A DNA stretch of 32,000 bases. It comes from an uncultured Clostridia bacterium. GTDB taxonomy: Bacteria > Bacillota > Clostridia > TANB77 > CAG-508. Positions 4,134-28,905 of this stretch are shown here, one piece after another. The position numbers and the translations under genes were made by a program. Each line of letters opens with the position of its first letter. Positions within the stretch are counted from its first letter, which is position 1. The stretch lies in contig CALXRX010000007.1 of NCBI GenBank assembly GCA_944390975.1, positions 13,636-45,635 on the forward strand. The letters are read 5' to 3'. The notes beneath the pieces were generated by a model. It searched no databases. It was given only the letters and a program-made list of their open reading frames with translations, and was not told the origin of the DNA.

Positions 4134-4137
4134 ATTT

Positions 4138-6368: not shown

Positions 6369-6543
6369 TAAACAGCAACAATATATGCTTGCTGTTAGTT
6401 TATACTTATTGTAGAATTTCTAATATATTAACAAATTTATTATTTCGTTACATATTTTATCATAAAATTTCAATTTCTAATAATATTTATTTACTCAATA
6501 TAAAAACATTTATATATATACCTTTTCCTACCTTTATATTTAC

Positions 6544-6595
6544 ATTTTTTATAGTATGCTATTATAATTATGTCGGAGGTAATAAATGAAAAAAA
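6544..6595 (+). repeat. Copy 1 of a ~52-bp repeated cassette junction (paired with 7658..7708)
   Basis: ATTTTTTATAGTATGCTATTATAATTATGTCGGAGGTAATAAATGAAAAAA versus ATTTTTTATGGTATGCCATTATAATTACGTCAGATGTAATTAATGAAAAAA. Six mismatches across the 44 columns up to the end of the shared A-run (9 mismatches over a 55-column span including the unannotated upstream flank; only 6544-6595 and 7658-7708, 52 and 51 nt, are annotated). Confidence 0.6.
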
Positions 6596-7700: not shown

Positions 7701-7708
7701 TGAAAAAA
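7658..7708 (+). repeat. Copy 2 of the cassette junction repeat (paired with 6544..6595)
   Basis: Covers the 3' end of the 159-aa gene plus an ATGAAAAAA that opens only a 13-codon ORF (MKKEFLDKLCKIN*). Confidence 0.6.
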
Positions 7709-7936
7709 GAATTTCTAGACAAATTGTGTAAGATAAATTAATGATTATGGGAATAGATATTTCTCCACCTATTTATTGGTGACTTAGCTATATTTAGTAT
7801 TGAATTATATGAACTTTTAACAGATAGATTTTTGTTATATAAGAAATTAGAAAAGGAATATAAATTTTTCAAAGCCATTCATTCCCAAAAATGAATAGCT
7901 TTGAAAAACAGGTAGAAGTTCATCCTAAGTTAATAC

Positions 7937-8797
7937 TTATTTTAATTCTTGTTTTTTAAATAAGAAAATTCCTAATATATTTAGCAAGACGATTTCACCA
8001 ATAGCATAAAATGGCATTTCATTTAAATATTGTTTTATTTGGTTTATTTCGTACTCATCTGGCTCAATCATTTCTGTACAAGCATTTTGCAATATACTAG
8101 CTTGACCTGTTGGTAATAAATAATTTATTACTTTATATATTTTTATTGTTGTCTCACCTGGATAGTTAGGATTTATTTCTTCACTAGAAAATTCAATCTC
8201 ACCGTATATATTATATTTTGTTGTTTTAGTAAAAGGTTTTTCCATCAATTTAGTAGATATAAACATCATAACTACAAACATTATAATAAATATAATAACA
8301 CATGCAATAAGAGAAACTGAAGCATCTTTACATAACATAGTAATTAAATTGTAAATTGTACAATAAATTGCAATAATTAAACTAGAATACATAATAATTT
8401 GAGCTAAGTTTAACGTTTGTAATGTTCCAAATAGCTCTGTGCCTAACAAAAAAACTATACTTGTATAAAGTATATTTACTATTAATCCTACTATCACACA
8501 TATAATCAAGTTGGCTAAGTAAATATTACTTCTTTTATGACCTACTACAATTTTATTTCGAATAAATCCTTCTGTATATTCTTTACCTACAAACATACTT
8601 ACAAAGAAAGCAATAAAAATACCAAAATACATGTATAAGTATTCTGTTATAATTCTATCCAAAGCAATTGACTCGCGAAGTCCATTAAAATATTTATATA
8701 AGGTAAATAAAGCAAGTACACAGGTAATAAAAAGTAGCAATAAGAAGACTTTGTCTTTTTTTAATCTATAAAATTCTGCTTTTAATAGTTTAATCAT
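7937..8797 (-). CDS. ABC-2 type transporter permease
   Basis: About 6 predicted TM helices. It overlaps the stop of the upstream ATPase gene. ATG at 8797 lies 8 nt after GGAGG; the GTG at 8806 used by the track lies inside the RBS. Confidence 0.7.
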   Translation of the reverse strand: MIKLLKAEFYRLKKDKVFLLLLFITCVLALFTLYKYFNGLRESIALDRIITEYLYMYFGIFIAFFVSMFVGKEYTEGFIRNKIVVGHKRSNIYLANLIICVIVGLIVNILYTSIVFLLGTELFGTLQTLNLAQIIMYSSLIIAIYCTIYNLITMLCKDASVSLIACVIIFIIMFVVMMFISTKLMEKPFTKTTKYNIYGEIEFSSEEINPNYPGETTIKIYKVINYLLPTGQASILQNACTEMIEPDEYEINQIKQYLNEMPFYAIGEIVLLNILGIFLFKKQELK

Positions 8798-9707
8798 TAT
8801 TTGCACCTCCTATTAAATTGATATAATAGTTTTCAAGTGTTTCTTCTTTTTCATGAAATTCATTTATAATACAATTTCTCTTTGAAAGTGCAATTGTAAT
8901 TTCAGTAATATTGACTTTACTATAAATATTAATTAATTGTTCAGAAACTACTTCATATGAGATGTTTTTCTCATCTAAGTATTTAATACATTCTTTCATG
9001 TTACTAACATTGATTTCTAGTCTTTTTTTACAATTTTCTTCTAACTTATCACTAGTAATTTCTTGAATAATTTGACCATTATTTAAAAAACCATAATGAG
9101 TGGCTATTTTAGATAATTCATCTAAATAATGGCTAGAAATTAAAAATGTAATGCCCTTTTCTTTGTTCAATTTCAATATTAATTCTCTCACTTCTATAAT
9201 TCCTTCTGGATCTAGGCCATTGATAGGTTCATCTAATATAAGAAAATTAGGATTACCAATTAAAGCAATAGCAATTCCTAGTCTTTGCTTCATTCCTAAA
9301 GAAAATTTTTTGACTTTTTTCTTTTCTACTTTATTTAATCCTACTAAATTCAATAATTCTTTTATATTATCTAAGTTAAATGGTAAACCAATTACTTTAT
9401 ATTGTTCTTTTAAATTTTCTTCTGCTGTCATATCTAGATATGCAGATGAATTTTCTATGATGGCACCCATCATTTTTCGCATTTCAATTATTTTTTTATT
9501 TTTATAGGGAATACCACCTATTTTATAACTACCATTACTTGGTTTTTGTAAGCCACAAATTAAACGCATCAAAGTTGTTTTTCCTGCTCCGTTTTTTCCT
9601 ATTAGTCCATAAATAGAGCCTTTTTCAACATGTATATTAAGATTAGAAAGAACTTTGAAATTTTTATATTTTTTTTCAAGATTATTTGTTTCTAAAATAT
9701 ATTCCAT
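8790..9707 (-). CDS. ABC transporter ATP-binding protein (ABC-2 / bacitracin-lantibiotic-export type)
   Basis: Walker A GKNGAGKTT, signature FSLGMKQRLGIA, Walker B FLILDEPINGLD. GGAGG RBS. Confidence 0.85.
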   Translation of the reverse strand: MEYILETNNLEKKYKNFKVLSNLNIHVEKGSIYGLIGKNGAGKTTLMRLICGLQKPSNGSYKIGGIPYKNKKIIEMRKMMGAIIENSSAYLDMTAEENLKEQYKVIGLPFNLDNIKELLNLVGLNKVEKKKVKKFSLGMKQRLGIAIALIGNPNFLILDEPINGLDPEGIIEVRELILKLNKEKGITFLISSHYLDELSKIATHYGFLNNGQIIQEITSDKLEENCKKRLEINVSNMKECIKYLDEKNISYEVVSEQLINIYSKVNITEITIALSKRNCIINEFHEKEETLENYYINLIGGANND

Positions 9708-9889
9708 AATTGCCTCCTTCGATTATATGTTATCATATATGAAAATGTTGGTCAATCAAAAAATAAGCACTCTTTAAAATTATAAGAACAAAGCCCCTTA
9801 TTGAAATTTCAAAATCTCCTCTAAATTTGTTTATTCCGTGTTATTGCCAAAATTCTAATTCTTTTTTCATTTCTGTTAATTTTTATAAC

Positions 9890-9921
9890 AAAAATACCTA
9901 TCTAACTTTACTTTAGATAGG
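9890..9921 (-). terminator. Intrinsic terminator after tRNA-Lys(CUU)
   Basis: Stem CCTATCTAA / TTAGATAGG with a 7-nt loop. On the minus strand it is followed by TATTTTTGTTAT. Confidence 0.6.
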
Positions 9922-9927
9922 CAAATT

Positions 9928-10003
9928 TGGTGAGCCATAGAGGGATCGAACCTCCGACCGTCAGATTAAGAGTCTGCTGCTCTACCAGCTGAGCTAATGG
10001 CCC
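9928..10003 (-). tRNA. tRNA-Lys (anticodon CUU)
   Basis: Reverse complement GGGCCATTAGCTCAGCTGGTAGAGCAGCAGACTCTTAATCTGACGGTCGGAGGTTCGATCCCTCTATGGCTCACCA. It has a 7-bp acceptor stem, a GTTCGATCC T-arm, anticodon loop CTCTTAA and an encoded CCA. Confidence 0.9.
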
Positions 10004-10018
10004 ATTTATAACAGTATT

Positions 10019-10048
10019 ATTATAATTCCAAAGTATTGCTTTTGTCAA
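10019..10048 (-). promoter_or_regulatory. SigA-type promoter for tRNA-Lys(CUU), nested in the vanW terminator hairpin
   Basis: On the minus strand: TTGACA (10048..10043), 18-bp spacer, TATAAT (10024..10019), about 15 nt before the tRNA 5' end. Confidence 0.45.
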
Positions 10049-10058
10049 TACTTTGGAA
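10026..10058 (-). terminator. Terminator hairpin downstream of the VanW-family gene
   Basis: Perfect 12-bp stem TTCCAAAGTATT / AATACTTTGGAA with a 9-nt loop, starting 8 nt after the stop at 10066. Confidence 0.55.
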
Positions 10059-10065
10059 TTAAAGA

Positions 10066-11664
10066 TTATTTTTTTGTGCCTTTTTCAACTATTCTTTCTA
10101 ATGGATTATATGAATCTTTTGATAATAGTGTTTTTGATACTACTTGACCATTTAATTTTAAAATTTTGTACGCTTCACTTTTATATCCATTTACTCCTTT
10201 TTGTATTTCGTTTTCTACTCCCTCTTCTAACTGGCTATTTTCTATATATTTAGTTGTATATGGTATTACTTCTGTTATTTCATCTTGTATTTCAACATCA
10301 TATTCTACTTCTTCTTCTATTCCATAAATGCTAATTTCACAAATTCCATTTTTAGATATACATTCTATTTTTATTGGGTATGTTCTATTATTTTTAAATT
10401 TCAAGTCTATTGTTCCATATGATACTGTTGCATCTCTACTTGCTGGAACATATGCTGTTATAAAATAATGGTTTCTTCTACTTACAATTTCTAAATTTGC
10501 TTCTAAAGCCGCATTATAAAGTGTAGATGATACTTGGCATATTCCTCCACCTATTCCATCAACAACTTTCCCATTCATATAAACAGAGGCTTCTTTATAA
10601 CCTGCTTTTATTGTTCTTGCTCCTACTACTTTATTATATGAGAATGTTTCTCCTGGCATTAGAGTTGTTCCATTTATTTTTTCAGATGATAACTTAATAT
10701 TAGTACTTCTATTTACATTGCTTTCATCATATCTAGTTATATAATTTGATAATTTTTGTGGGAAAAAGTTTTCATAGTCTAAATCTGTGGTTTTTATTTC
10801 TGCTTCAGTAATATTCAATGGAATAACATATTCTTCTTTTTCTTCTTCTAAAAGTTTTTTTGCTTCATCTATTGAAATTTTAAAGTCTACTCCGTTTACT
10901 TCTGTGTGTAACTCAAATGGATTTTCTTCATAATATGCATTTTGTGGCTCTTTATATATTTCTTCTCTTATTTTTTCAATATCTATTTTTTCTGGTTGTT
11001 TTTCTTCTATTGGTATTTCAATTATACCAACTTCTTCACCTTTTATTTGTTTTTTTATTGCTTCAATTATGGTATTTTTAAATTCTTCTTTTTTAACTTG
11101 AATTCCTGCTTTACCATTTTGAATGATTAAATTTTCTCCTTCTATATAATATGAACTTTCTACTACTATTCCTGGTATTTTTGTAGAGATATCTTCTATA
11201 ATTTTATTAAGTTCTTCTTCATTTATATATATTTCTTTTTCAATTTTTTTATTAAATATTCTTGTTAATAAAATTTCATAATTACTAATTAATATATTAG
11301 TATTTCTTCCAACTTTATAGGCATCGTTTACCGCTTCTGCTGTACTATATGTTACTTCTAATTGTCCTAAACTAATTGTGGTTTCATAATCTCCTTGTTT
11401 TACAGTTAAATTTTTAGCTGTTTGTTTTTCTAAATTTTCTCTTATTTTTTCATATGCCTCATTTATTGTTAAACCTGATACATCAATTTGGTTTATTTTT
11501 ACTCCTGTAATTATTTTTTCATTTACTGAATTAGTTATTGCAAATATTGTTGATAATACTAAAACTGCAAAAATTATAGCTGTAGGTATAATTATTTTTT
11601 TTATATATTTTTTAAATATACTATTATTAACTTGTTGTCTTTTTCTTCTATTATTACCTCTCAT
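10066..11664 (-). CDS. VanW-family protein with N-terminal membrane anchor and C-terminal G5-like domain
   Basis: 532 aa. TM helix IIIPTAIIFAVLVLSTIFAI. VanW core GGGICQVSSTLYNAALEANLEIVSRRNH. The C-terminal segment EIQKGVNGYKSEAYKILKLNGQVVSKTLLSKDSYNPLERIVEKG is G5-like. AAGGAG RBS. Confidence 0.8.
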   Translation of the reverse strand: MRGNNRRKRQQVNNSIFKKYIKKIIIPTAIIFAVLVLSTIFAITNSVNEKIITGVKINQIDVSGLTINEAYEKIRENLEKQTAKNLTVKQGDYETTISLGQLEVTYSTAEAVNDAYKVGRNTNILISNYEILLTRIFNKKIEKEIYINEEELNKIIEDISTKIPGIVVESSYYIEGENLIIQNGKAGIQVKKEEFKNTIIEAIKKQIKGEEVGIIEIPIEEKQPEKIDIEKIREEIYKEPQNAYYEENPFELHTEVNGVDFKISIDEAKKLLEEEKEEYVIPLNITEAEIKTTDLDYENFFPQKLSNYITRYDESNVNRSTNIKLSSEKINGTTLMPGETFSYNKVVGARTIKAGYKEASVYMNGKVVDGIGGGICQVSSTLYNAALEANLEIVSRRNHYFITAYVPASRDATVSYGTIDLKFKNNRTYPIKIECISKNGICEISIYGIEEEVEYDVEIQDEITEVIPYTTKYIENSQLEEGVENEIQKGVNGYKSEAYKILKLNGQVVSKTLLSKDSYNPLERIVEKGTKK

Positions 11665-11746
11665 AATTTCTCCTTTTTAATTAATTACATGTTAATATTA
11701 TCACAGTTTTTTTTTCTTTACAATATATATTTTATTCTATTTTTTT

Positions 11747-11950
11747 CTAACTATTATCTCCAAAAAATATTTCTGTTATTGTCTTTCCCAATGTTTGTGC
11801 TATACTTTCCATTATTTTAGTAGATGGATTCATTCTAGTTCCTTTTTCTAAATGACACAAATATCCTGTTGAAATTCCTGCCTTTTTAGCCAATTCTTCC
11901 AAATTCATTCCCTTCTCTTTTCTATAGTCTCTTATTCTATTTTTATACAT
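11747..11950 (-). CDS. Cro-like XRE-family HTH regulator
   Basis: The RBS-supported start is AAAGGAGAAAAATATG at 11950; the track start at 12010 has no RBS. MNLEELAKKAGISTGYLCHLEKGTRMNPS is a classic HTH_3 motif. Confidence 0.75.
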   Translation of the reverse strand: MYKNRIRDYRKEKGMNLEELAKKAGISTGYLCHLEKGTRMNPSTKIMESIAQTLGKTITEIFFGDNS

Positions 11951-11981
11951 ATTTTTCTCCTTTCGTTTACAATTTGTCAAT

Positions 11982-12010
11982 ATTATATCGATGCTAATTT
12001 GACAAGTCAA
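11982..12010 (-). promoter_or_regulatory. SigA-type promoter of the cro-like gene
   Basis: On the minus strand: TTGACT (12010..12005), 17 bp, TATAAT (11987..11982). The -35 is half of the palindrome TTGACAAGTCAA (11999-12010). Confidence 0.5.
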
Positions 12011-12060
12011 TTGTTTTGTGATATTTTTTTATAAAATTTAATATTTTTTTCATTTACTGG

Positions 12061-12089
12061 TAGACAAATTGTGTTTTTTTATATATAAT
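12061..12089 (+). promoter_or_regulatory. SigA-type promoter of the CI/LexA-like gene
   Basis: TAGACA (12061-12066), 17 bp, TATAAT (12084-12089). GACAAATTGT overlapping the -35 is the inverted copy of ACAATTTGTC at about 11969-11978. Confidence 0.5.
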
Positions 12090-12122
12090 AATGAAAAAAT
12101 ATGGAAAAAGAGGTAGAAATTT

Positions 12123-12692
12123 ATGATTGGTGACATGATTGCAAAAGCAAGAAAAGAAAAAAAGATGACAAAAACAGAACTTTCTAGATTAACAGACATT
12201 AATATAGGTCATTTAACACATATTGAAAAAGGAGAAAGAAATCCTAGCCATAAAGCATTAAAAAATATTTGCAAAGCTTTAGATATTCCTTATCAACAAT
12301 TAATGTATACTTATGATAAAGTTATTAATGAAGATCAAGAAAATTATAATGTTATAAGCCATATTTCTTATAATAAATTATTAGCAGTAGATTCTGTTAG
12401 TGGATTTATTGATTGTCCACCTAATGTACCAAGTTCTGCTATTGCTTTAAAAATAAATGATGATTCTATGGCACCAACCTTTGCAAAAGACTCATATGTA
12501 TTTATAGAATTTAATACACCTTTAAACAGCAGAGACTATGGTTTATTTAGTTTAAATGGAGATATTATTATTAGAAAATTCTTTACAAGAAACGGAAAAA
12601 TTATTTTAAGAGCTGATAATAAAAATAATCCTGAAATTTCTGTAAAAAAAGATGATGTTTTTTACATTATTGGAAAAATTTTATCAAAATAA
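12123..12692 (+). CDS. CI/LexA-like repressor: XRE HTH fused to an S24 self-cleaving peptidase domain
   Basis: N-terminus MTKTELSRLTDINIGHLTHIEKGERNPS is an HTH. The C-terminus has the catalytic Ser context INDDSMAPTF and a downstream Lys (IIIRKFF), as in LexA/CI S24 domains. Confidence 0.75.
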   Translation: MIGDMIAKARKEKKMTKTELSRLTDINIGHLTHIEKGERNPSHKALKNICKALDIPYQQLMYTYDKVINEDQENYNVISHISYNKLLAVDSVSGFIDCPPNVPSSAIALKINDDSMAPTFAKDSYVFIEFNTPLNSRDYGLFSLNGDIIIRKFFTRNGKIILRADNKNNPEISVKKDDVFYIIGKILSK

Positions 12693-12713
12693 ATAATTTC
12701 TTGTAAAAAATAC

Positions 12714-12742
12714 TTGAATATTTGTTTTTTTAATAATATAAT
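12714..12742 (+). promoter_or_regulatory. Candidate SigA promoter for the 12778 gene
   Basis: TTGAAT, 17 bp, TATAAT, about 35 nt before the AAGGAG RBS. Confidence 0.35.
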
Positions 12743-12777
12743 ATGGATACAAAAGATAAATAAGGAGAGATATAATA

Positions 12778-13242
12778 ATGGAATTAACAAAAAATATATT
12801 CTTTAATACTGATAAATTAATAGAAAATTCAACTGTTAAAATTTCTTATTCAGGAAAACTATTTCAAGAAAATGCTGAAAGAGTTTTTATTCACTATGGA
12901 TTTGGATTACTTTGGGATAATTTAAATGAAATAGAAATGGAAAAAACTGAACTTGGTTTTCAAGCAGAAATTAAACTTGATTCTTTTGATACATTCAATT
13001 TCTGTTTTAAAGACGATAATAACTGTTGGGATAATAACAATGGAAACAATTATATTTTTCCAATTGAAAAAAATGTTATGTCTTTAGTTGCAACAGAACA
13101 AGACGAATTAAGTATGATTACACCTAGAAGACTAAGAAAATCTTACATTTGGAGTAAAAAAGTAAGACTTGCAATATATAAAATTATTACATACATTCCA
13201 AAAATTATATCTGGAAATTATAAAAGAAAAGTAACTGAATAA
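12778..13242 (+). CDS. Hypothetical protein with a CBM25/CBM53-like (starch-binding-type) domain
   Basis: 154 aa. The pattern VKISYSG...VFIHYGFGLLWDN...FCFKDDNNCWDNNNGNNYIF resembles carbohydrate-binding modules that carry a WDNN-G-NY signature. This assignment is from memory only. Confidence 0.45.
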   Translation: MELTKNIFFNTDKLIENSTVKISYSGKLFQENAERVFIHYGFGLLWDNLNEIEMEKTELGFQAEIKLDSFDTFNFCFKDDNNCWDNNNGNNYIFPIEKNVMSLVATEQDELSMITPRRLRKSYIWSKKVRLAIYKIITYIPKIISGNYKRKVTE

Positions 13243-13252
13243 TATATAAATT

Positions 13253-13274
13253 AAAGACGGAATAATCCGTCTTT
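13253..13274. terminator. Bidirectional terminator between convergent genes
   Basis: Stem AAAGACGGA / TCCGTCTTT with a 4-nt loop. It is flanked by A/T runs and overlaps the SDR stop codon. Confidence 0.6.
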
Positions 13275-13999
13275 TAAATTACCCATCCGCCATTTGGAGA
13301 TATAATTTGCCCAGTTGTATAAGTATCTTCAACTAACCATTTTGCACATTTTGCAATTTCTTCTGGCATTCCAAATCTTCCTAATGGTATTTGATTATTT
13401 ATTTCTTCAATTTCTTCCTTTGTACAATCATTATTCATATCTGTCATTATTGCACCTGGCGCAATTGAATTAACTCGTATTCCAGATGGTCCTAGTTCTT
13501 TTGCTAATGCTTTTGTTAAACCATCTATTCCAGCTTTACTAACAGAATATGCAACTTCACATGAAGCTCCTGTTATTCCCCATATAGAAGAAATATTTAT
13601 AATACATCCCTTTTTATATTTAATCATATCTTTTACTACTTCTTGAGTCATATAAAAAACAGAATTTAAATTACAAGAAATTAATTCATCCCAATCTTTA
13701 TCTGTAATATCAGTAAATAACTGCCATTTATCAATTCCTGCATTATTAACTAATATATCTATTTCACCAAATTTTTCTTTTGCAAATGCTATAAGCTTTT
13801 GGACTTCTTCTCTTTTAGAAACATCAGCTTTATATATTTCTACTTTATTCCCTTTTTGTGTTAAATCTTTTTTTAGGTTTTGTGCTTCTTGTTCAGACTT
13901 ATTATAATTAATTACTACATTTATCCCCATTTGTGCAAATTCTTCAACTATCGCTCTTCCAATACCTTTTGCTCCTCCTGTTATAATTGCTGTACTCAT
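13274..13999 (-). CDS. Short-chain dehydrogenase/reductase (FabG-like 3-oxoacyl-ACP reductase family)
   Basis: TGGAKGIGRAI cofactor motif, NNAG, and the catalytic YSVSKAG (YxxxK). Confidence 0.85.
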   Translation of the reverse strand: MSTAIITGGAKGIGRAIVEEFAQMGINVVINYNKSEQEAQNLKKDLTQKGNKVEIYKADVSKREEVQKLIAFAKEKFGEIDILVNNAGIDKWQLFTDITDKDWDELISCNLNSVFYMTQEVVKDMIKYKKGCIINISSIWGITGASCEVAYSVSKAGIDGLTKALAKELGPSGIRVNSIAPGAIMTDMNNDCTKEEIEEINNQIPLGRFGMPEEIAKCAKWLVEDTYTTGQIISPNGGWVI

Positions 14000-14071
14000 T
14001 TATTTCCTCCTAATTAATAAAATAAAAGCCAATAATTAAGAGCTTTCTCAAAACTATTGACCTTTTTAATA

Positions 14072-14148
14072 TGGAGCCACTTCTCAGATTCGAACTGAGG
14101 ACCCCCGCATTACAAGTGCGGTGCTCTGGCCAACTGAGCTAAAGTGGC
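14072..14148 (-). tRNA. tRNA-Thr (anticodon UGU)
   Basis: Reverse complement GCCACTTTAGCTCAGTTGGCCAGAGCACCGCACTTGTAATGCGGGGGTCCTCAGTTCGAATCTGAGAAGTGGCTCCA. Full cloverleaf with anticodon loop CTTGTAA. Confidence 0.9.
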
Positions 14149-14150
14149 GT

Positions 14151-14225
14151 TGGTGACCCGTACGGGATTCGAACCCATGTCTCCGCCGTGAAAGGGCGGT
14201 GTATTAACCTCTTTACCAACGGGCC
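14151..14225 (-). tRNA. tRNA-Glu (anticodon UUC)
   Basis: Reverse complement GGCCCGTTGGTAAAGAGGTTAATACACCGCCCTTTCACGGCGGAGACATGGGTTCGAATCCCGTACGGGTCACCA. Anticodon loop CTTTCAC. It lies only 2 nt from tRNA-Thr. Confidence 0.9.
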
Positions 14226-14264
14226 AAATATAAAAGAATGCTAAATTTTCATTTAGTATTCTTT

Positions 14265-14340
14265 TGGTGAGCCATCGCAGACTCGAACTGCGGACAACTT
14301 GATTAAAAGTCAAGTGCTCTACCACCTGAGCTAATGGCCC
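14265..14340 (-). tRNA. tRNA-Lys (anticodon UUU)
   Basis: Reverse complement GGGCCATTAGCTCAGGTGGTAGAGCACTTGACTTTTAATCAAGTTGTCCGCAGTTCGAGTCTGCGATGGCTCACCA. Anticodon loop CTTTTAA. Confidence 0.9.
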
Positions 14341-14498
14341 AAAAATGTACCCGTGAAATAGGTACTTTAATATGTTACTACATTTTTTATGTTCTGTCAA
14401 TCTTTTTTTCACATTTTTTTCATATTTTTGAAACTTTTTTATCATATTTATTGTTTTATTATATAATATATATTTTTTATACCTTTAATATAACAAAT

Positions 14499-14684
14499 TT
14501 ATGCGTTTAATTCATTTAAAATTTCTTCTACATCTATTCCATGTACCATACAAGCTTCTTCTATAGTTTCTTCTTGTGATGCTGGACATCCTAAACAATG
14601 CATTCCTGCATTTAATAATATTTCTGCTTTTTCTGGTGCATTTTCTAATAATTCTCCAATTTTTGTTGTTTTTTCTATTTTCAT
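14499..14684 (-). CDS. DUF1858-family small protein (hybrid-cluster-protein-associated redox disulfide domain)
   Basis: 61 aa. TKIGELLENAPEKAEILLNAGMHCLGCPASQEETIEEACMVHGID is the typical DUF1858 pattern with CxxC. Confidence 0.7.
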   Translation of the reverse strand: MKIEKTTKIGELLENAPEKAEILLNAGMHCLGCPASQEETIEEACMVHGIDVEEILNELNA

Positions 14685-14739
14685 TGTTTCACCTCCTATC
14701 TTAATTTCTCATATTTTATCATATTTATTCAAAAAAGTA

Positions 14740-14768
14740 TAGACAAATTTATTTTTTTGTTATATGAT
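14740..14768 (+). promoter_or_regulatory. Candidate SigA promoter for the coupling-protein operon
   Basis: TAGACA, 17 bp, TATGAT. It is followed by a 10-bp inverted repeat, GTGATAAAAA (14786-14795) / TTTTTATCAC (14817-14826). AT-rich background, so support is weak. Confidence 0.3.
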
Positions 14769-14950
14769 TATGCTATTGTTAGGTGGTGATAAAAATTAAT
14801 ACTTTAATTAATCTATTTTTTATCACTTTCATTATAAATATTTTTATTGTTTTTTATTCAATTTATACTTTTTTCGATATTAAAATTTTCCATAATTTAC
14901 AAGGTGCAAAATTAAATATCAAAAAACGTGACTTTAATTAGGAGGTTTTC

Positions 14951-16675
14951 ATGTTAGTACAAAAATTTTATCATAGGCTATTTTTTTGCTTTATTTTTTG
15001 TTTTTTCCTCTGTTTAATTGGATTTATATTATTTAAACCTATTTTTTTAACTAATACAGTAATTATTCCCTATTCTTTACATCCTTATGATATATGTGCT
15101 ACTAAACCCGTTTTATGGCAGAATATTAAAATTTGTTTTATTATTTTTTACGTTATTTCTTCAATTATTTGTTCAAATTTTTTATATTCTTTAATTTTTC
15201 GAAAATATATACTTAATGTAAAGAAATTAAATAAAAAAAGCAATAAACTTATTAAGCCCAATTTAAATGATAAAAATTTATTTTTATTTGTAGGAAAAAA
15301 TGAAAGTGACAATTTAGTTTATATTCCAGAAAAAAGTTTATATCAAAACATTTTAATTACCGGTACTATTGGTACTGGAAAAACAAGTTCTTGTATGTAC
15401 CCATTTACAAAACAATTAATAAATTTCAATAATAATAACCCTAATTCTAAATTAGGCATGCTAATTTTGGATGTTAAAGGAAATTTCTATCGTGAAGTTA
15501 TTAATTTTGCAAGAAATTCTAATCGTTTGGATGATTTATATATAATTGAATTAGGAAAAAATGTAAAATATAATCCGCTTGATAAGCCAAATTTAAAACC
15601 AAGTGTTCTTGCTAATAGATTGAAAACAATTCTTATGCTTTTTTCTCCCAATAACTCGGATTCCTATTGGCTTGATAAAGTAGAGCAAGTTCTGACTGAA
15701 GCAATAAAATTCTGCAGGTTATATAATAATGGCTATGTTACTTTTTTAGAACTTCACAAATTAGTTACTATTCCAAATTATTATATCGATAAATTAGATA
15801 TTATAAAAGATATTTTTATTTCTGGTAAGTTATCCAAAAAAGATTGTTATGATGCAATTTCTTCAGTTGAATTTTTTGAAAAAGAATTTAATTCACTTGA
15901 TAATAGAACTTCTTCTATTATCAAATCCGAAATTACTCGTATTACAAATTGTTTTGTTTCAGATTATGATGTAATGAATACTTTTTGCCCCCAAAAAGAA
16001 GATATTACTTTCTCTGGTTTTAGAGATTTAGTAGATAATGGAAAAATTGTTGTATTAAATATGAATATTGCAGAATACAGGAATTTATCAAAAATTATTG
16101 CAACCTATTTAAAATTAGATTTTCAAACAGAAGTTATGAACAGATTAAATAGGTATGATAATAATGATTTTAGAAGTGTAGCATTTATATGTGATGAGTT
16201 TCATGAATACTGTTCTATCTCAGATGCAGATTTTTTTGCACAATCAAGAGAAGCAAAATGTATAAATATTGTTGCAACACAAAGCTATTCCTCTTTATTA
16301 AACTCAATTAATAATCAATATGCAGTAAAAGTAATTGTTCAGAATTTAATAAATAAATTTTGGTTTAGAACTGATGACATTAATACAATTGATGATATCC
16401 AAAAGCAAATTGGTAAAGAGGATAAAGTAAAAATATCTAAAAGTATTTCTGAAAATGCTAAGGAAACTCATTACAGCTATTTTACAAAATCCTTAAATTC
16501 TAAAGATTCAAATTTGTCTGAGAGTATAAATGAATATGTACAAAGTGATTATATTTATGATACTAATTTTTTTACTACAGGATTAGAAACCTTTTCATGT
16601 TTGTCCTTTTTATCTGATGGATATAAAATTTTAAAACCAATGAAATTAAAATTGATTCCATATTTTCGTAAATAA
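14951..16675 (+). CDS. VirD4/TraG/TraD-family type IV coupling protein (T4CP)
   Basis: 574 aa. N-terminal TM helices. Walker A ILITGTIGTGKTSS, then LILDVKGNF. Walker B VAFICDEFHEY, followed by AQSREAKCINIVATQSYSSL (TraG-D_C-like). AGGAGG RBS. Confidence 0.8.
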   Translation: MLVQKFYHRLFFCFIFCFFLCLIGFILFKPIFLTNTVIIPYSLHPYDICATKPVLWQNIKICFIIFYVISSIICSNFLYSLIFRKYILNVKKLNKKSNKLIKPNLNDKNLFLFVGKNESDNLVYIPEKSLYQNILITGTIGTGKTSSCMYPFTKQLINFNNNNPNSKLGMLILDVKGNFYREVINFARNSNRLDDLYIIELGKNVKYNPLDKPNLKPSVLANRLKTILMLFSPNNSDSYWLDKVEQVLTEAIKFCRLYNNGYVTFLELHKLVTIPNYYIDKLDIIKDIFISGKLSKKDCYDAISSVEFFEKEFNSLDNRTSSIIKSEITRITNCFVSDYDVMNTFCPQKEDITFSGFRDLVDNGKIVVLNMNIAEYRNLSKIIATYLKLDFQTEVMNRLNRYDNNDFRSVAFICDEFHEYCSISDADFFAQSREAKCINIVATQSYSSLLNSINNQYAVKVIVQNLINKFWFRTDDINTIDDIQKQIGKEDKVKISKSISENAKETHYSYFTKSLNSKDSNLSESINEYVQSDYIYDTNFFTTGLETFSCLSFLSDGYKILKPMKLKLIPYFRK

Positions 16676-16760
16676 TAATTTATTTTACTTTTAAATTAAT
16701 AATAAACAATTTTTTTAAACTGTTTTATATTTATTAAAATTTATTTTAGGAGGTTTTATT

Positions 16761-17090
16761 TTGAAAACAAAAAAATTATTTTTTATTTTATTTACTGTAT
16801 TTTTATTTATTATTATTTTATTTTCATCTGCTAATTATTCTTACTGTGCAGATCAAAAACTTGTAAATACTATAAATAAGGCTTTTGAACAAATACAAGA
16901 CTGGTTATTAAAGCTTGCAACCCCTGCTGCTGCAGTTGCTGTTGGCACTGGTGTTTTTATGAAAAAGTTTAGTTTTGGAGATGAAGAGAGAATTAGAGTT
17001 GGAAAAAAATTAATTAAAAGTTCTTTATTTTCTTATGCATTTATTCTAGCAATTGATTTAATTCTATCTGCTATTAAATCACTAATTTAA
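16761..17090 (+). CDS. Small TrbC/VirB2-like or Maff2-like membrane protein
   Basis: 109 aa. TTG start 7 nt after AGGAGG. A signal-like N-terminus is followed by two hydrophobic helices (LATPAAAVAVGTGVF and LFSYAFILAIDLILSAI) separated by a charged loop. Its position between T4CP and VirB6 matches clostridial conjugation modules. Confidence 0.55.
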   Translation: MKTKKLFFILFTVFLFIIILFSSANYSYCADQKLVNTINKAFEQIQDWLLKLATPAAAVAVGTGVFMKKFSFGDEERIRVGKKLIKSSLFSYAFILAIDLILSAIKSLI

Positions 17091-17105
17091 TAGGAGGTTG
17101 ATTTA

Positions 17106-17984
17106 TTGGAAGAAGAAATAAATATAACAGAAGTAATTATTAATTCTATTAATACTATTTTTCAAACTATTTTTTCATCTATTGATAATAATTTATATTC
17201 TATTATTGATGAAATAACTTTTGTTAATACAGATATTTTAGATACTTCTTATTTTAGAAATATTTTTGGTACATCAACAACAAATGGAATTCTTTTAATT
17301 GCAAATTCTCTTGTTTTAGGATTTTTTCTATATTATTGTTTTAAATTATTATTATCAAATCTTTTAATAACTCAAACAGAACGCCCTGTTAGTTTTATTT
17401 TTAAATTATTAATTTTTTGCATTTGCATGAATTCTTCAATATTTATTTGTGAACAGATAATTTTTATTAATAATTCTATTTCTTCTGCAATAAAAGAACT
17501 AGGAAATAATTTATTTGGAACTACTTTAAGCTTTTCTGCTTTAGTAGAAAAATTAAATATTATGATACAAATAGAAGAAAATAGTTTTACTATTTTTTCT
17601 ATAGATGGTTTGTTGAAAAGTATAATTTCAATTAGTTTTTTAAATTTAACTTTTTCTTATTCTCTAAGATACATAATGATAAAAGTGTTTGTTCTTATTT
17701 CTCCTTTTGCTTTTTTATCTCTTAGCACAAGTTCTACTTCTAGCTTTTTTAAAGCTTGGATTAAGTGTTTTTTATCATTATTATTTATACAAATTTTAGT
17801 GTCATTTGTTTTACTAATAATATTTTCTATAGATTTTAGCTCTAATAATATTTTTTCTAAATTTTTAATTTGTGGCTCTATTTTTGCTTTGCTTAAGGCT
17901 AATTCTTATGTTAGAGAATTTATGGGTGGAATTAGTACTGATATATCTAATAGCTTTAATGGTATAAAATCTTTTATTAAGTAG
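17106..17984 (+). CDS. VirB6/TrbL-like polytopic membrane protein
   Basis: 292 aa. TTG start 8 nt after AGGAGG. Multiple TM helices. The conserved-looking core is SYSLRYIMIKVFVLISPFAFLSL...FFKAWIKCFLSLLFIQ (an RY...SP...W.K pattern). Confidence 0.6.
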   Translation: MEEEINITEVIINSINTIFQTIFSSIDNNLYSIIDEITFVNTDILDTSYFRNIFGTSTTNGILLIANSLVLGFFLYYCFKLLLSNLLITQTERPVSFIFKLLIFCICMNSSIFICEQIIFINNSISSAIKELGNNLFGTTLSFSALVEKLNIMIQIEENSFTIFSIDGLLKSIISISFLNLTFSYSLRYIMIKVFVLISPFAFLSLSTSSTSSFFKAWIKCFLSLLFIQILVSFVLLIIFSIDFSSNNIFSKFLICGSIFALLKANSYVREFMGGISTDISNSFNGIKSFIK

Positions 17985-17995
17985 GTGTGTTAATT

Positions 17996-18277
17996 ATGAA
18001 ATTTATATTTCCTCAAAATTATAATTTTAATAGCAAATTATTTGGTTTTATTGATTATTCCACTGCTATATTGAATATTGTTTGGTTTAGTTTTGTTTTT
18101 TGTTTTGTTAATTTATTTTTTTCTAATATTAATTTAAAAATATTTATATTTATTGTTTTATGCTTTCCTGTATTACTATTTAGTATTATTGGATTTAATC
18201 ATGAAAATATTATATATGTTTTTATATATATTTCTAAATATGTTAGAAATCCTAAAATATATCTGTACAAAAGATAA
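17996..18277 (+). CDS. PrgI/TcpE/VirB3-like small two-TM protein
   Basis: 93 aa from ATG 17996; the track uses GTG 17987. Two TM helices. It occupies the slot that normally precedes virB4. Confidence 0.5.
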   Translation: MKFIFPQNYNFNSKLFGFIDYSTAILNIVWFSFVFCFVNLFFSNINLKIFIFIVLCFPVLLFSIIGFNHENIIYVFIYISKYVRNPKIYLYKR

Positions 18278-23393: not shown

Positions 23394-24155
23394 TTATATT
23401 AATTTTTTAGCAAGTGCTAGTTCATCTTCTGAAAGATTAAAATCTTGTCCTTTATTTTTTATTAATGTATGTAAATTTTCTACTTGGTGTGCTTTTTTTA
23501 ATGTATCTTCTAATGGAATTAATTCTTCTAATTTTTCTTTTATTTTATTATATTCTAATTCCATTTTAGAGAAATTTTGTTGTTTATAATAAGTGTTCCA
23601 ATTATTTATATATTTATCTAATTTTTCTATACCTTTTAATTGATTTGTTAATGTATTTTCTATGTTGCTTTCTATATTGCTAATTAAAACATTTTTTCCA
23701 TTTTTTATTATATCTTCTAAACTATTTGGTAATATTCCACTTTTACTTGCTACATTTATTCCAAAATCTATTCCATCTGAAATTGTATCTAATAATCCTC
23801 CTTTTTCAACTGCTTTTTGTATTTGTGTAATATTATCAAATTTTCCTGTTACTATTCCTAATGCACTTTTACCTAAATCAATTGCACTTTCTATCGTTTT
23901 ATTTATTCCTTCTTTAAAACCTTCTTTTATTATTGTATCTTTTATTTCTATTACTTGGTCTTCTATAACATCTGGTAATAAATATCTAAGCCCTACATTT
24001 AAAGCTGTATTTATGGTTTTTCCAAGTGTTGTGTCTAAAAAATTATTTTGTTTTTCTGCAGTTATATTATAATCTATATTGTTATTTATTAATTTATTTT
24101 CATTTTCTAAATTATTTTGGGTTGGTTTATTATCTTTTTCTAATTCTACAGTCAT
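23394..24155 (-). CDS. Hypothetical soluble, helix-rich protein; last gene of the virB4 to parA-like gene string
   Basis: 253 aa. GAAAGGAA RBS. No TM segment or signal peptide, and an N/K/E/I-rich composition. I recognise no family. Confidence 0.6.
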   Translation of the reverse strand: MTVELEKDNKPTQNNLENENKLINNNIDYNITAEKQNNFLDTTLGKTINTALNVGLRYLLPDVIEDQVIEIKDTIIKEGFKEGINKTIESAIDLGKSALGIVTGKFDNITQIQKAVEKGGLLDTISDGIDFGINVASKSGILPNSLEDIIKNGKNVLISNIESNIENTLTNQLKGIEKLDKYINNWNTYYKQQNFSKMELEYNKIKEKLEELIPLEDTLKKAHQVENLHTLIKNKGQDFNLSEDELALAKKLI

Positions 24156-24200
24156 TTATTTTTTCCTTTCTATTTATATTTATTATTTTAATTTTGTTTT

Positions 24201-24440
24201 AATTAATTATTTTTTTTTACTATTTTATTTTCATTTTTTAATTAATTATTTTTTTATTTACTTTTTTATTTTTATTTTTTAATTAATTATTTTTTTATTT
24301 ACTTTTTTATTTTTATTTTTTAATTAATTATTTTTTTATTTACTTTTTTATTTTCATTTTTTAATTAATTATTTTTCAATTTACTATTTTATTTTTGTTA
24401 ATTAATTTATTTTTAATTTATTATTTTATTTTTGTTTTTT
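24201..24440. repeat. Tandem array of about six 37-41-bp units, each starting AATTAATT
   Basis: Unit starts at 24201, 24240, 24281, 24322, 24363 and 24400, with a partial unit at 24441. Units 2 and 3 are identical (AATTAATTATTTTTTTATTTACTTTTTTATTTTTATTTTTT) and unit 4 differs by 1 nt. The array occupies most (240 of 283 nt) of the intergenic space. Confidence 0.8.
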
Positions 24441-25812
24441 AATTTTCTATTTTTTCTAAATAATATTTTTTTAATTTATTATTTCTAATTATTTTTTTTG
24501 CAATATTTTTATATTGTTTTTTTATTTTATTTTCTAAAAATATTTCATTCATGTTTTGATTAATTAAAGTATTACATTTTTTTATAAAATTAATTTTTCC
24601 TATTATATTATAATTTTTAAAAACTTCTTTTAAAATATCAAAACATATAGTATCACTTTTTATTTTATTAAATAAAATATATATTTTTTCTTTATTTATA
24701 TTCCACTCATTTAAATATTTTTCAAGTAAATTTTTTGCTTTTTTTATTTGTAATAAATTTGGCTCTGTCATAAATATTATTTTATCTGCATTATTTACTA
24801 AATTTGTTATGCTTTTATAATTTATATTATTATTTTTTTCTTGTTCAAAATCTATTAATATATAATCATATTTATTTTTTAAATTATTTATTATTTTAAT
24901 TAATTCAATATCATTATTTATAATATTATTTATTTTAGAGATTAAATCTATTTTTGAATTAATTTTTATTATTTCCTCATTTAATTCTGTTTCTTCCTGA
25001 ATATTATTTTTTTGATTTTCACTATTTTTTACATTTTTATTTTTTATATTTTTTCCAAATAGAGTTTGTATGCTGTTATTAATGTAATCGAAATCTATTA
25101 TTAATATTTTTTTATTTAATTTTTCTAATTGCTTAGCTATATTTACAGTAAATATTGTTTTTCCTACACCTGTACATCCACTAATAATTATTAATTTTGA
25201 AATTGTTTTTTTATTTTCTTTTTTTATAATTTTTAATATACTATTTATTATTTTATTTTTTAATAAATTATTTTCATATTCTTTTTTTATTTCTGTTTCT
25301 ATTTCTATTTTTTCTTCTTTTGTAATTAAATTTATTTTTTCATTGTTTTTTATTTCTTTTTTTTCATTTTTTTCAATATTTTTTTCTTTATTTTCTTCTT
25401 TGTTTAATATTATTTTTTTTAATTCTTTTATTTCATTTTCTAATTCTTCTTTTTTATTTTTATTTATTATTAATTCTGCTATTTCTTTTATTTCTATTTC
25501 ATTGTTATAAAATATATTAATATTTCCTTTTGCAAATAAATAATTTTCTAATGCTTTGTTTTCTTTTTCTAGTATAATTATTAATTTTATTTCTTTTTTT
25601 ATATTTTTTATTTCTTCTATTAGTTCTTTTATATTATATTTTCCTGGTAGCAATTCGCTAATAATTATAATTTCAATATCTGGATGTATTTCTAATGCTT
25701 CTATAATTCCTTCTTGATATTGTATATCATTCATTACTATTTCTATTTCTTTGTATTCTTTTAGTTTTTCATTAACATTTTTATTTAGTAAAGCTGTAAT
25801 TAATTTTTTCAT
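24439..25812 (-). CDS. MinD/ParA-superfamily P-loop ATPase (CpaE/TadZ-like) with N-terminal pseudo-receiver domain and K/E/N-rich linker
   Basis: 457 aa. The N-terminal ~115 aa has a receiver-like alternating beta/alpha pattern but lacks the acidic pocket (LITALLNKN in place of the DD pair, IIISE at the phospho-Asp position). The P-loop is IIISGCTGVGKT, followed by ILIIDFD and YDYILIDFE, both MinD-like. Confidence 0.65.
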   Translation of the reverse strand: MKKLITALLNKNVNEKLKEYKEIEIVMNDIQYQEGIIEALEIHPDIEIIIISELLPGKYNIKELIEEIKNIKKEIKLIIILEKENKALENYLFAKGNINIFYNNEIEIKEIAELIINKNKKEELENEIKELKKIILNKEENKEKNIEKNEKKEIKNNEKINLITKEEKIEIETEIKKEYENNLLKNKIINSILKIIKKENKKTISKLIIISGCTGVGKTIFTVNIAKQLEKLNKKILIIDFDYINNSIQTLFGKNIKNKNVKNSENQKNNIQEETELNEEIIKINSKIDLISKINNIINNDIELIKIINNLKNKYDYILIDFEQEKNNNINYKSITNLVNNADKIIFMTEPNLLQIKKAKNLLEKYLNEWNINKEKIYILFNKIKSDTICFDILKEVFKNYNIIGKINFIKKCNTLINQNMNEIFLENKIKKQYKNIAKKIIRNNKLKKYYLEKIEN

Positions 25813-25841
25813 TTTTGAAATCCCCTTTTTTATAGGTATAA

Positions 25842-27428
25842 CTAAATTTTATTTATTATTTCTTTTTCAAAATTGTTTGCTTCTATTTTTGTTAGAATAT
25901 GATTTTCTCCTGCAAACATTAAGCATTCTCCTCTTTTTAATGATTTTATTTCTACTTTTTCTTTTTCTGATAAGTTAGAATATTGTGCTAATATTTTTAT
26001 GTTTTCTTCTTCTAATGAAAAAAAAGTTTTTATGCTTGTATTGTTTAATATACTTCTTCCATATATTCCATTTTCTAAACTAAATAAATCTGATATGTCT
26101 TGAGTTATTGCTACTGCACTTCCTCCATATTTTCTTATTGTTTTAAATATTTTATATATAAAGCTTGCTACGTTTTTATTTGATGTTACTCCAATTAGTC
26201 TCCATATTTCATCTAGATATATTGCTTTTTTTACTTTTCTGTTTATTTTTATTTTATCCCAAAATAATTCTGTAAATATATACATTCCATATTGTAAATT
26301 TTCTTCTCCTAATTCATATACATCTGCAACTATAAAGTTGTTATCTATTTTTACGTTTGTGTATTGGTTAAAAAATTTTAATGAGCCTTTTATAAATGGA
26401 ATTAATTTTGTTTTAAATACTTTTGTTTTTGGATCTTTGTCTAAAATATTATATAAATCTTCTAATATTGGCATGTCTTTACTGTCTTTAAATATTTTTG
26501 TTATTGTAATTTTATTTTCTTCATTTTTGTATAAGCTTTCATCATCAAATGTTATTCCTTTTTCTGAATAACATTGAATTAATTTGTCTTCTAATATTGC
26601 TTTTTCTTCTTCATCCATTTCTCCAAAAATTAAATTAAAAAAGCCTATTAGTTTTCCTATTTTTGTTGCTAAATATCCTTTTTCATTTTCTTCTATACTT
26701 TCTTTTCTTATATCAAATATATTTATGTATGTACTAGATGTTGGTCCTATTTTTAACAGTGTTCCACCTAAGTTTTTGCAAATGTTATTATATTCTCTAT
26801 CTGGATCTATTACATATTGTTCTATTCCTAATAATCTATTTCTTAGTATTAGTAATTTTGTGTAAAATGATTTTCCTGCTCCACTTGTTCCAAATATGCT
26901 TATATTTGCATTTTTATATTTATTTGTATTATATCTGTCTATAAAAACTAAACTGTTGTTATATATGTTTGTTCCTATGTATATTCCATTTTCATCAAAT
27001 ATTGATGATGATATAAATGGATATGTTGATACAAGGCCTTGTGTTAATATGTTTCTTTTACTTACTTCTTTTATGTCTTCATGATTTTTCATTATTGGCA
27101 TGCATGATAAAAATGCTTGTTCTTGTCTAAAGTATGCTCTTCTTGTTTGCATTCCTTTACTTTGTATTATTCCTTCTGTTTTATTTATAAGGTATTCTAA
27201 TTCTTTTTTATTTTTTGTGAATAAGTTTATATAAATATATAAAAAATATAGTTCTTCATTGTTTACTTGCATTTGTTTTCTGATGTATTTTGCGTCATTG
27301 TATGTAAATGCTGCTATGTCTATATCTTGACTATTTTGATTTTTATTTTGTAAATCTACTCCTACATTTCCAATATGATATGTTAATTCTCTAATTATTT
27401 TATATGAGTCTTTTTTCTCATAAAACAT
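25842..27428 (-). CDS. VirB4-family (TraE/TcpF/PrgJ-like) conjugation ATPase, P-loop part
   Basis: Walker A ISIFGTSGAGKSFYTKLL and Walker B AIYLDEIWRLI. The first canonical start is ATG 27428, but the frame is open and homologous up to 27692 (DIIAPTYINLQNPKYIEIDDIYYSSLLI). Confidence 0.85.
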   Translation of the reverse strand: MFYEKKDSYKIIRELTYHIGNVGVDLQNKNQNSQDIDIAAFTYNDAKYIRKQMQVNNEELYFLYIYINLFTKNKKELEYLINKTEGIIQSKGMQTRRAYFRQEQAFLSCMPIMKNHEDIKEVSKRNILTQGLVSTYPFISSSIFDENGIYIGTNIYNNSLVFIDRYNTNKYKNANISIFGTSGAGKSFYTKLLILRNRLLGIEQYVIDPDREYNNICKNLGGTLLKIGPTSSTYINIFDIRKESIEENEKGYLATKIGKLIGFFNLIFGEMDEEEKAILEDKLIQCYSEKGITFDDESLYKNEENKITITKIFKDSKDMPILEDLYNILDKDPKTKVFKTKLIPFIKGSLKFFNQYTNVKIDNNFIVADVYELGEENLQYGMYIFTELFWDKIKINRKVKKAIYLDEIWRLIGVTSNKNVASFIYKIFKTIRKYGGSAVAITQDISDLFSLENGIYGRSILNNTSIKTFFSLEEENIKILAQYSNLSEKEKVEIKSLKRGECLMFAGENHILTKIEANNFEKEIINKI

Positions 27429-27692
27429 TGATATATTTACATTTATGTTTGTGTCTATTAAATTTTTTAATAATAAATCGGTTTGTTCTCTATAATAATT
27501 TACTATTAATAGTGAGGAATAATATATATCATCTATTTCTATGTATTTTGGATTTTGTAAATTTATATATGTTGGTGCTATAATATCTTTTTGATTTATT
27601 GCTCCTTCTAAAAATTCTAATTTTGGGTTTTCTGTTTCTTTATTTTTTTTATTATTTTTAAATATTTGTATTTTTATTTTTTTTCCTCCTTT

Positions 27693-28268
27693 TTAATTAT
27701 TTTCGATAAAATTTTTTGTACTTAAAAATGATAATATTATTTGTATTATTTCTTCTTTTGAATCATATTCTTGTACTACATTTCCACATCTCGATAGACA
27801 TTCTTTTATTTTAAAATATTTTTCGTTTAAGTCTTGAAATATAATTTCTTCATTAATATTTTCTTTTTTGTTTTTATGGGAGTTTTTTATTATGATATAA
27901 AAATTTTTTGATGATGATTTTTTTTCATTGTTTATTTTTTGAATAAAATTTATATAATTTTGAGATAATTCTAAAATATTTTTATTTGTTTCTTTTTCCA
28001 TTTGTGTGTTTATGTTTGAACTATGTTTTGATAAATCTTTTTTATTACTTTGAATTAATATCTGAATGTCAAAATTACATGTTTTTAAGAAAATTTTATA
28101 AGAATTTAAAATTGCTTCTTTTTCTAATTCTGATTTTAAATTATAGTTTATTGGAATAACTTTTAGGATTTTAACATAGGAATTGTCTTTTAATTTTATA
28201 ATTCCTTTTTCAAAAATTGTTTGAATTGGCAACCAGTTCTGTACAGAAAAAATTTGTTTTTCCTCCAT
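27693..28268 (-). CDS. VirB4-family ATPase, N-terminal domain fragment (same frame as 25842..27692, ended by a single TAA)
   Basis: 191 aa. WLPIQTIFEKGIIKLKDNSYVKILKVIPINYNLKSELEKEAILNSYKIFLKTCNFDIQILIQS matches the N-terminal domain pattern of Gram-positive VirB4 proteins. AAGGAG RBS. Confidence 0.7.
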   Translation of the reverse strand: MEEKQIFSVQNWLPIQTIFEKGIIKLKDNSYVKILKVIPINYNLKSELEKEAILNSYKIFLKTCNFDIQILIQSNKKDLSKHSSNINTQMEKETNKNILELSQNYINFIQKINNEKKSSSKNFYIIIKNSHKNKKENINEEIIFQDLNEKYFKIKECLSRCGNVVQEYDSKEEIIQIILSFLSTKNFIENN

Positions 28269-28297: not shown

Positions 28298-28326
28298 ATA
28301 ATAAATCTTTTTCTTTGCTTTGTCAA
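28298..28326 (-). promoter_or_regulatory. Strong SigA-type promoter of the virB4 operon
   Basis: On the minus strand: consensus TTGACA (28326..28321), 17 bp, TATTAT (28303..28298), about 30 nt before the ATG at 28268. Confidence 0.5.
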
Positions 28327-28862: not shown

Positions 28863-28905
28863 ATTAATAGCGTAATAATGTTATTTGCATTATTACGCTA
28901 TTAAT
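28863..28905. terminator. 18-bp perfect hairpin between the gyrB 3' end and the non-coding gap
   Basis: ATTAATAGCGTAATAATG, loop ttatttg, CATTATTACGCTATTAAT. On the plus strand ATTTTATTG follows. It lies about 80 nt downstream of the gyrB stop on the minus strand, where no U-run follows. Confidence 0.55.

Follow-up and report, generated by a model that had tools for sequence, protein, structure and literature searches.

Described as a remote homologue of the VirB4 N-terminus, TrsD occurs among monoderm conjugation systems only in the pGO1 subclass; it is also abundant beside VirB4 in the type IV secretion system (T4SS) that Patescibacteria encode on the chromosome, close to the origin (PMC12102498). 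In the staphylococcal conjugative plasmids pSK41 and pGO1, TrsD (TraD in the TraD/TraE naming, NF041427) is encoded directly upstream of a VirB4 body without that region, TrsE (TraE). In pSK41, trsD encodes 227 amino acids (aa), a gap of 14 nucleotides (nt) follows, and trsE encodes 672 aa. Conserved AUA or AUU starts are known from the Staphylococcus aureus genes infC, ccpN, cvfC1 and citZ, all with an extended Shine-Dalgarno sequence (SD) and with about 10-30% of the output of AUG (bioRxiv 10.1101/2025.06.19.660503), and AUA and AUU mRNAs are translatable in vitro in a manner that depends on context and nutrients (PMC5499595). The locus described here lies in a 32,000-nt stretch of DNA from an uncultured Clostridia bacterium (the window; GenBank assembly GCA_944390975.1, contig CALXRX010000007.1, positions 13,636 to 45,635). 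On its minus strand, two functional, co-oriented genes most probably supply the VirB4 type IV secretion ATPase jointly, the first encoding a TrsD-like N-terminal domain and the second an ATPase body started at an AUA codon at position 27677.

Read on the minus strand from 28268 to 25842, the locus forms 809 codons (2427 nt) in one frame, with TAA at 27695-27693 as the sole internal stop. The letters from the stop onward are TAA AAA GGA GGA AAA AAA ATA. The SD AAAGGAGG (27692-27685), with a predicted anti-SD duplex of -12.2 kcal/mol, begins 1 nt past the TAA and is abutted by it; seven A's follow, and the in-frame ATA, the proposed non-canonical start (27677-27675), lies 7 nt after the last G of GGAGG and 15 nt downstream of the TAA. 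In the list of open reading frames (ORFs), the first ATG, GTG or TTG past the TAA is at 27428 and opens a 528-aa ORF, leaving 88 in-frame codons without a canonical start. An earlier reading of this sequence (the original prediction) had described the 809-codon frame with its single TAA, the SD followed 7 nt later by an in-frame ATA, and the lack of ATG, GTG or TTG before 27428; the minus-strand translation, the DNA letters and the ORF list, respectively, bear these out.

The DNA around the TAA is 100% identical in three metagenome contigs over 2.9-3.3 kb and 99.8% identical in a fourth. These contigs come from four samples and two metagenome projects, and the same TAA is thus present in four independent assemblies, in keeping with the earlier judgement that a sequencing artefact was less likely here than at two frameshifts elsewhere in the window. 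A sequencing or assembly error at 27693-27695, for which nothing speaks beyond the oddity of the stop itself, has a negligible probability in the face of these identical sequences and of relatives that share the two-gene layout. The fourth contig (L004) has one internal difference from the window, a G-to-A change at window position 27685 (L004 position 664) that lies inside the SD and turns GGAGG into GGAGA. This variant within the population would make the ribosome-binding site weaker; the remaining two mismatches fall at the end of the contig.

The upstream, TrsD-like gene (27693..28268, minus strand) encodes 191 aa from an ATG preceded by AAAAGGAG to the TAA, and has the form of a stand-alone VirB4 N-terminal domain. 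The match to the VirB4 N-terminal domain had been noted in the original prediction and agrees with the profile searches, in which the piece matches VirB4 profiles at positions 1-131 (CD1110 family, 38.5 bits) and 100-286 (Mbov_0397) and, more weakly, the TrsD/TraD profile NF041427 at positions 13-182 of its 201 (26.3 bits, E 5.7e-6). Of 32 relatives of the piece, 30 hit an N-terminal region of VirB4 and 21 hit TrsD/TraD at E<=1e-3 (best 1.3e-11). When 1.8 billion representative proteins were searched, nearly all of the top 150 matches were stand-alone proteins or fragments of up to ~240 aa, the close relatives being nearly all stand-alone at about 170-200 aa; a few of the 150 are long fused VirB4s at 28-39% identity. 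The ratio of nonsynonymous to synonymous substitution rates (dN/dS) of the gene is 0.11-0.25 against nine relatives. A Pfam search of the 191-aa piece and its 32 relatives returned nothing useful, in a Pfam set that did not contain PF26593 “TraC-like”, which is listed in precomputed tables. A PDB sequence search with the piece gave no meaningful match, and tblastn against plasmids gave weak partial matches only, which did not clarify fused versus split states. In one relative (L005, 7690-7742), the 3′ end of the gene looks displaced by a single base compared with the window; reading the other frame there restores the ending …NFINKN*, like …NFIENN* in the window, which suggests an indel or a sequencing error in the L005 assembly.

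The downstream gene (25842..27677, minus strand; stop at 25844-25842) encodes the VirB4 body, 611 aa when read from the ATA. Its P-loop ATPase domain scores 71.3 bits against PF19044 P-loop_TraG (cut-off 25.8) and holds intact Walker A (GTSGAGKS, 26868..26891) and Walker B (YLDE, 26208..26219) motifs, both invariant in the alignment of relatives, while the C-terminal half of the body matches the VirB4 C-terminal domain structure PDB 4AG5 (E 3.8e-44). The 616 codons downstream of the TAA match positions 183-731 of the CD1110 profile and 274-893 of the Mbov_0397 profile. The post-stop codons do continue VirB4, as had been proposed, and both pieces are VirB4 homologues at the profile level. Against the CD1110 equivalog profile, the body alone reaches 298.8 bits and misses the cut-off of 325, so it is a relative of the CD1110 family and no member of it.

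The N-terminal piece and the body are collinear with one full-length VirB4, and a full-length match is reached by the two genes together only. The concatenated pair aligns end to end with the fused protein P0174, a true 849-aa ORF in a relaxase-bearing element, at 41% identity, and also with the fused P0250. Single-chain Firmicute VirB4s of this kind (the CD1110 family NF045971 and P0174) share with the window locus the collinearity across the junction and the ATPase motifs, but are one polypeptide in relaxase-bearing mobile elements, whereas the window has two genes at a conserved chromosomal site.

The likeness to pSK41 extends to the layout. The window pair consists of 191 aa, a 15-nt gap and 611 aa, and the body, read from the ATA, aligns with pSK41 TrsE at 27% identity (E 4e-51), its residue 31 lying opposite TrsE residue 36. 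As the two body N-termini align within 5 residues, the split point is the same as in pSK41, and a stand-alone small gene again stands directly upstream of the body. Among the differences, the pSK41 trsE gene has an ATG start, where the window body has the proposed ATA, and the pSK41 system is plasmid-borne with a relaxase, whereas the window system is chromosomal and lies between gyrB and gyrA. In the review literature searched, there was no explicit statement on split VirB4.

The two-gene layout was followed in a scan of one genome per species, comprising 80 loci, all from metagenome-assembled genomes (MAGs) of uncultured gut Clostridia (rabbit, chicken, mouse, human and zoo animals). Wherever a locus includes sufficient upstream DNA (about 77 species-level loci), the N-terminal gene precedes the body as an ORF of its own. 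In the 68 loci with both ends placed, the body start falls in frame 0, +1 or +2 relative to the upstream stop in 19, 26 and 23 cases, no different from one third each (chi-square about 1.1), and the intergenic distance ranges from -14 (overlap) to 1160 nt (median 22 nt). In 37 of these loci the two genes overlap or are no more than 30 nt apart, and in 16 they are separated by more than 150 nt. Since the relatives use all three frames and variable distances, the shared frame in the window is a coincidence between two separate, conserved genes, and the framing of the locus as one interrupted 809-codon frame is misleading. Comparison with orthologs, which had been proposed as a check, thus returns separate genes in all relatives and gives the TAA in a shared frame no special meaning. 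On this distribution, the split is best regarded as the ancestral state of a large clade of gut Clostridia that are uncultured and very AT-rich. The database homologues agree: of the closest 120 (76-96% identity), nearly all are separate body proteins of about 530-624 aa.

In the original prediction, a recent nonsense mutation that leaves a decaying VirB4 pseudogene was one option, and a lone in-frame TAA in an otherwise continuous 809-codon frame is what it would leave behind. The comparison refutes it: the split occurs in all of the more than 80 related species and in three relative frames, both parts are under purifying selection, the ATPase motifs are intact, and the body is 73-89% identical across species.

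Programmed readthrough of the TAA, or a reassigned stop, would instead yield a single 808-aa VirB4, as the in-frame ORFs of the window and of 19 of the 68 relatives would permit and as a 797-aa ‘fused’ database entry, P0012 (L006 98-2491), seems to exemplify. Readthrough, too, had been listed at the outset; the explanation is now scarcely tenable, as the in-frame layout is no commoner than chance and is not a conserved arrangement. The entry P0012 was rejected as a fusion: it has an in-frame TAG at the junction that was read as Gln, and is a gene-calling artefact of an alternative genetic code applied to a short contig. An alternative code for the window organism was rejected as well, because table 11 gives a clean translation of gyrB, gyrA and the other genes, and neighbouring genes in the window end normally at TAA.

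With the genes separate, the start of the body becomes the central matter. At the corresponding position, almost all relatives carry a strong SD. The DNA from the upstream stop to LEFLEG, the first conserved motif, lacks any ATG, GTG or TTG in 49 of 81 non-redundant loci (about 60%), and several of the other ‘canonical’ candidates are a GTG inside the ribosome-binding sequence GGAGGTGAT. Of the 61 loci in which the SD match is 5 nt or longer and no canonical codon stands beside it, 53 have an in-frame ATT, ATA or ATC located 6-9 nt after the last G of GGAGG, against 10.7 expected. The predicted starts at 68 loci are ATA in 28, ATT in 27, ATC in 1, ATG in 11 and TTG in 1. On a neighbour-joining tree of the body proteins, ATT or ATA is reconstructed at the root, with ~7 switches to or from ATG or TTG and a total of ~25 codon changes; the codon keeps its initial AT and varies at the third base. 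The SD is stronger in loci that lack a canonical start (median -12.2 versus -10.7 kcal/mol, Mann-Whitney p 3e-6), a compensation that would be predicted if the weak codon does serve as the start. The window thus has a strong, extended SD properly spaced from an in-frame AUA with no canonical alternative, and the non-canonical start is conserved across species. A genome-wide habit of ATA or ATT starts was considered; within the window, all the other real genes have canonical starts with short leaders, and none requires a non-canonical one.

This arrangement resembles the S. aureus AUA/AUU starts and the AUU start of Escherichia coli infC in the near-cognate codon, the conservation across species and the strong, extended, properly spaced SD. 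It differs in that the S. aureus starts were mapped by ribosome profiling and reporters, whereas the window start derives from comparison between species, and in that the S. aureus genes encode regulators or IF3, whereas the gene here encodes a secretion ATPase.

A start of the body at ATG 27428 (27426..27428, minus strand) would give 528 aa and leave the 88 codons upstream of it untranslated. It is the choice of gene callers, and database clusters of 528-587 aa agree with it, but no SD precedes this ATG, and in 70 of 82 relatives the codon aligned with it is ATT or ATA. The 88 codons themselves are under purifying selection: they are open in the same frame in all relatives and contain invariant residues, and dN/dS against nine relatives is about 0.2-0.4 for codons 25-88 of the stretch, compared with 0.07-0.24 for the rest of the body. 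They also align with TrsE from residue 36 onward and with the CD1110 profile from position 183 onward. A start at 27428 is therefore very improbable, and the ATG is most likely, on this alignment, merely an internal Met codon.

A closer competitor is termination-reinitiation, in which body synthesis is strictly coupled to the upstream gene and ribosomes ending at the TAA restart at the nearby ATA. The 15 nt between stop and ATA, the stop abutting the SD and the 37 of 68 loci with overlapping or closely spaced genes all fit such coupling, yet we regard it as unlikely, since the 16 loci with genes more than 150 nt apart (up to 1160 nt) keep the same SD and ATA or ATT, and the SD is strong enough for independent initiation. 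Coupling may contribute, but it is no general basis of initiation because distant gene pairs retain both elements. The two-polypeptide VirB4 with an ATA start, the third option given in the original prediction, therefore gains from the comparative data, while the ‘re-initiation’ attached to it is unneeded, the same ribosome-binding site and ATA or ATT being found where the genes are 200-1160 nt apart. Such wide spacing, of 260-1160 nt, is seen in L005 (7740-8000), L021, L022, L041, L067, L025 and L042; the L005 spacer is extremely AT-rich and apparently non-coding.

The reading we favour is accordingly that of two polypeptides made from two genes. The 191-aa TrsD-like protein (28268..27693) would be the equivalent of the N-terminal domain of a single-chain VirB4, and the ATPase body of about 611 aa (27677..25842) would be the second polypeptide, with the split falling in a linker of low conservation, at the position that matches the trsD|trsE boundary in pSK41. 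Initiation of the body would be of the ordinary SD-directed kind on AAAGGAGG, with the near-cognate AUA 7 nt downstream read as Met by initiator tRNA. Ribosomes that terminate at the TAA 15 nt upstream may add translational coupling, which the scheme does not require. By analogy with the Firmicute genes that have been tested, the weak AUA or AUU with an extended SD would throttle translation to roughly a tenth to a third of that from AUG, possibly in an IF3- or nutrient-sensitive manner.

Several points weigh against this reading or limit its reach. The curated cut-off of NF041427 (200 bits) is missed by the 191-aa piece, which is thus a homologue at the profile level and no curated member, and a pairwise BLAST of the piece against pSK41 TrsD found no significant similarity; since the latter is not significant, only profile-level homology to TrsD is claimed. 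The split may share ancestry with TrsD/TrsE or may have arisen independently at the same linker. The count of 53 in 61 has a binomial p of about 5e-32, a value that ignores species relatedness and takes its background of 14.7% from the following tail, and ATA and ATT are common Ile codons in this Lys/Ile/Asn-rich tail (14.7%); the tree-based count still gives many independent codon changes. Where an ATG is present, it lies 3-5 nt after GGAGG, whereas ATA or ATT lies at 6-9 nt, and this one-codon offset is unexplained and makes the exact start codon uncertain in some species. Initiation at AUA 27677 is itself proposed from comparison alone. Finally, low-level readthrough of the TAA may produce some fused protein in the window species.

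Both the split, which is of the TrsD/TrsE kind, and the start, which joins an extended SD to AUA or AUU, belong to known kinds. What is new is the membership in both kinds, the clade-wide persistence of a weak start with compensating SD strength, and the systematic mis-annotation that results. For comparative work, the locus is a clean case of a near-cognate start that has been kept through deep divergence together with a strong ribosome-binding site that compensates for it, and it would extend to a secretion ATPase a mechanism recently demonstrated in S. aureus.

The consequences for annotation are practical. NCBI translation table 11 already permits ATA, ATT and ATC starts. In most of the clade's species, gene callers restricted to ATG, GTG and TTG cut 23-88 residues off the body protein, and a wrong genetic code created at least one ‘fused’ database entry. 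The annotated starts of the body gene are unreliable clade-wide, as at L005 8001, at the junctions in L009, L012, L042, L043 and L073, and in database clusters of 528, 543, 565 and 587 aa. Some annotated starts are on internal ATG codons, which leaves the protein 23-88 residues short, and others are on a GTG within the ribosome-binding sequence GGAG(G)TGAT.

In the window, the cassette has the order gyrB, TrsD-like gene, VirB4 body, ParA/MinD-like ATPase, 253-aa protein and gyrA, of which 23394-28268 is on the minus strand. The L005 stretch (1-17484) opens with dnaA, dnaN, recF, remA and gyrB, a gene order that places this stretch next to the replication origin. A second group of secretion genes is located ~4 kb beyond gyrA, directly upstream of dnaD- and dnaI-like genes, on the plus strand. 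It consists of a 574-aa coupling-protein homologue (14951-16675; TrwB_AAD_bind, E 7e-11), a VirB2-like pilin of 109 aa (16761-17090; PF18895, E 1.8e-5, just under the cut-off), and, within 14951-18277, a putative multi-pass membrane protein of 292 aa and a putative two-pass membrane protein of 96 aa, both assigned by hydrophobicity. The VirB4 genes are thus associated with other T4SS components, and no relaxase was seen in the window.

This dispersed chromosomal T4SS gene set among replication genes closely parallels the origin-proximal system of Patescibacteria (PMC12102498). The latter also combines a TrsD homologue and VirB4 with VirB2-, VirB3- and VirB6-like genes and a coupling protein, is chromosomal, often next to dnaA/dnaN, and derives from monoderm conjugation systems (PMC12102498). 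The two differ in phylum, the MAGs here being labelled Clostridia and carrying RemA, DnaD and DnaI; start codons are not discussed in the paper on Patescibacteria (PMC12102498). A TrsD-type VirB4 split in a chromosomally fixed secretion system beside replication genes may merit a study of its own, and the more interesting lead is probably the origin-proximal system of this reduced lineage of Clostridia with 24% GC. A further, speculative extension, which we consider doubtful, is that the weak AUA or AUU start is selectively maintained as an IF3- or nutrient-dependent throttle, as in S. aureus ccpN, that would set the TrsD:VirB4 ratio or gate assembly in a domesticated, origin-proximal T4SS, the Firmicute counterpart of the epibiosis-essential system of Patescibacteria. 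If this were true, it would hint at a dependence on other cells in these tiny gut Clostridia (24% GC) as well.

Several further features surround the cassette. A promoter-like site, TTGACA and TATTAT separated by 17 nt (28298..28326, minus strand), lies ~30 nt upstream of the TrsD-like gene and matches the consensus at 11 of 12 positions. It probably drives the two-gene transcript, but it is a consensus match only, and the region shows no excess of promoter-like matches over shuffled sequence. Between gyrB and the TrsD-like gene, ~700 nt contain no convincing ORF, while L005 has two small genes there (CrtO-like and NTPase_I-T). Just downstream of gyrB (end 28986), a perfect palindromic hairpin with a 19-bp stem (28863-28905) is likely a bidirectional terminator. 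Elsewhere, the window carries four tRNA genes (9931-10003 and 14075-14340, minus strand), three of them clustered, and a 111-aa ORF at 14110-14445 was set aside as a spurious reading across tRNA genes. The ParA/MinD-like ATPase gene (24439..25812, minus strand; 457 aa) starts 30 nt after the VirB4 stop and follows VirB4 also in L001-L003 and L005. The GC content falls to 11-16% across 24001-25800, which corresponds to the N-terminal half of this protein, a long low-complexity region rich in Lys, Glu, Ile and Asn; the ATPase domain spans residues about 205-445.

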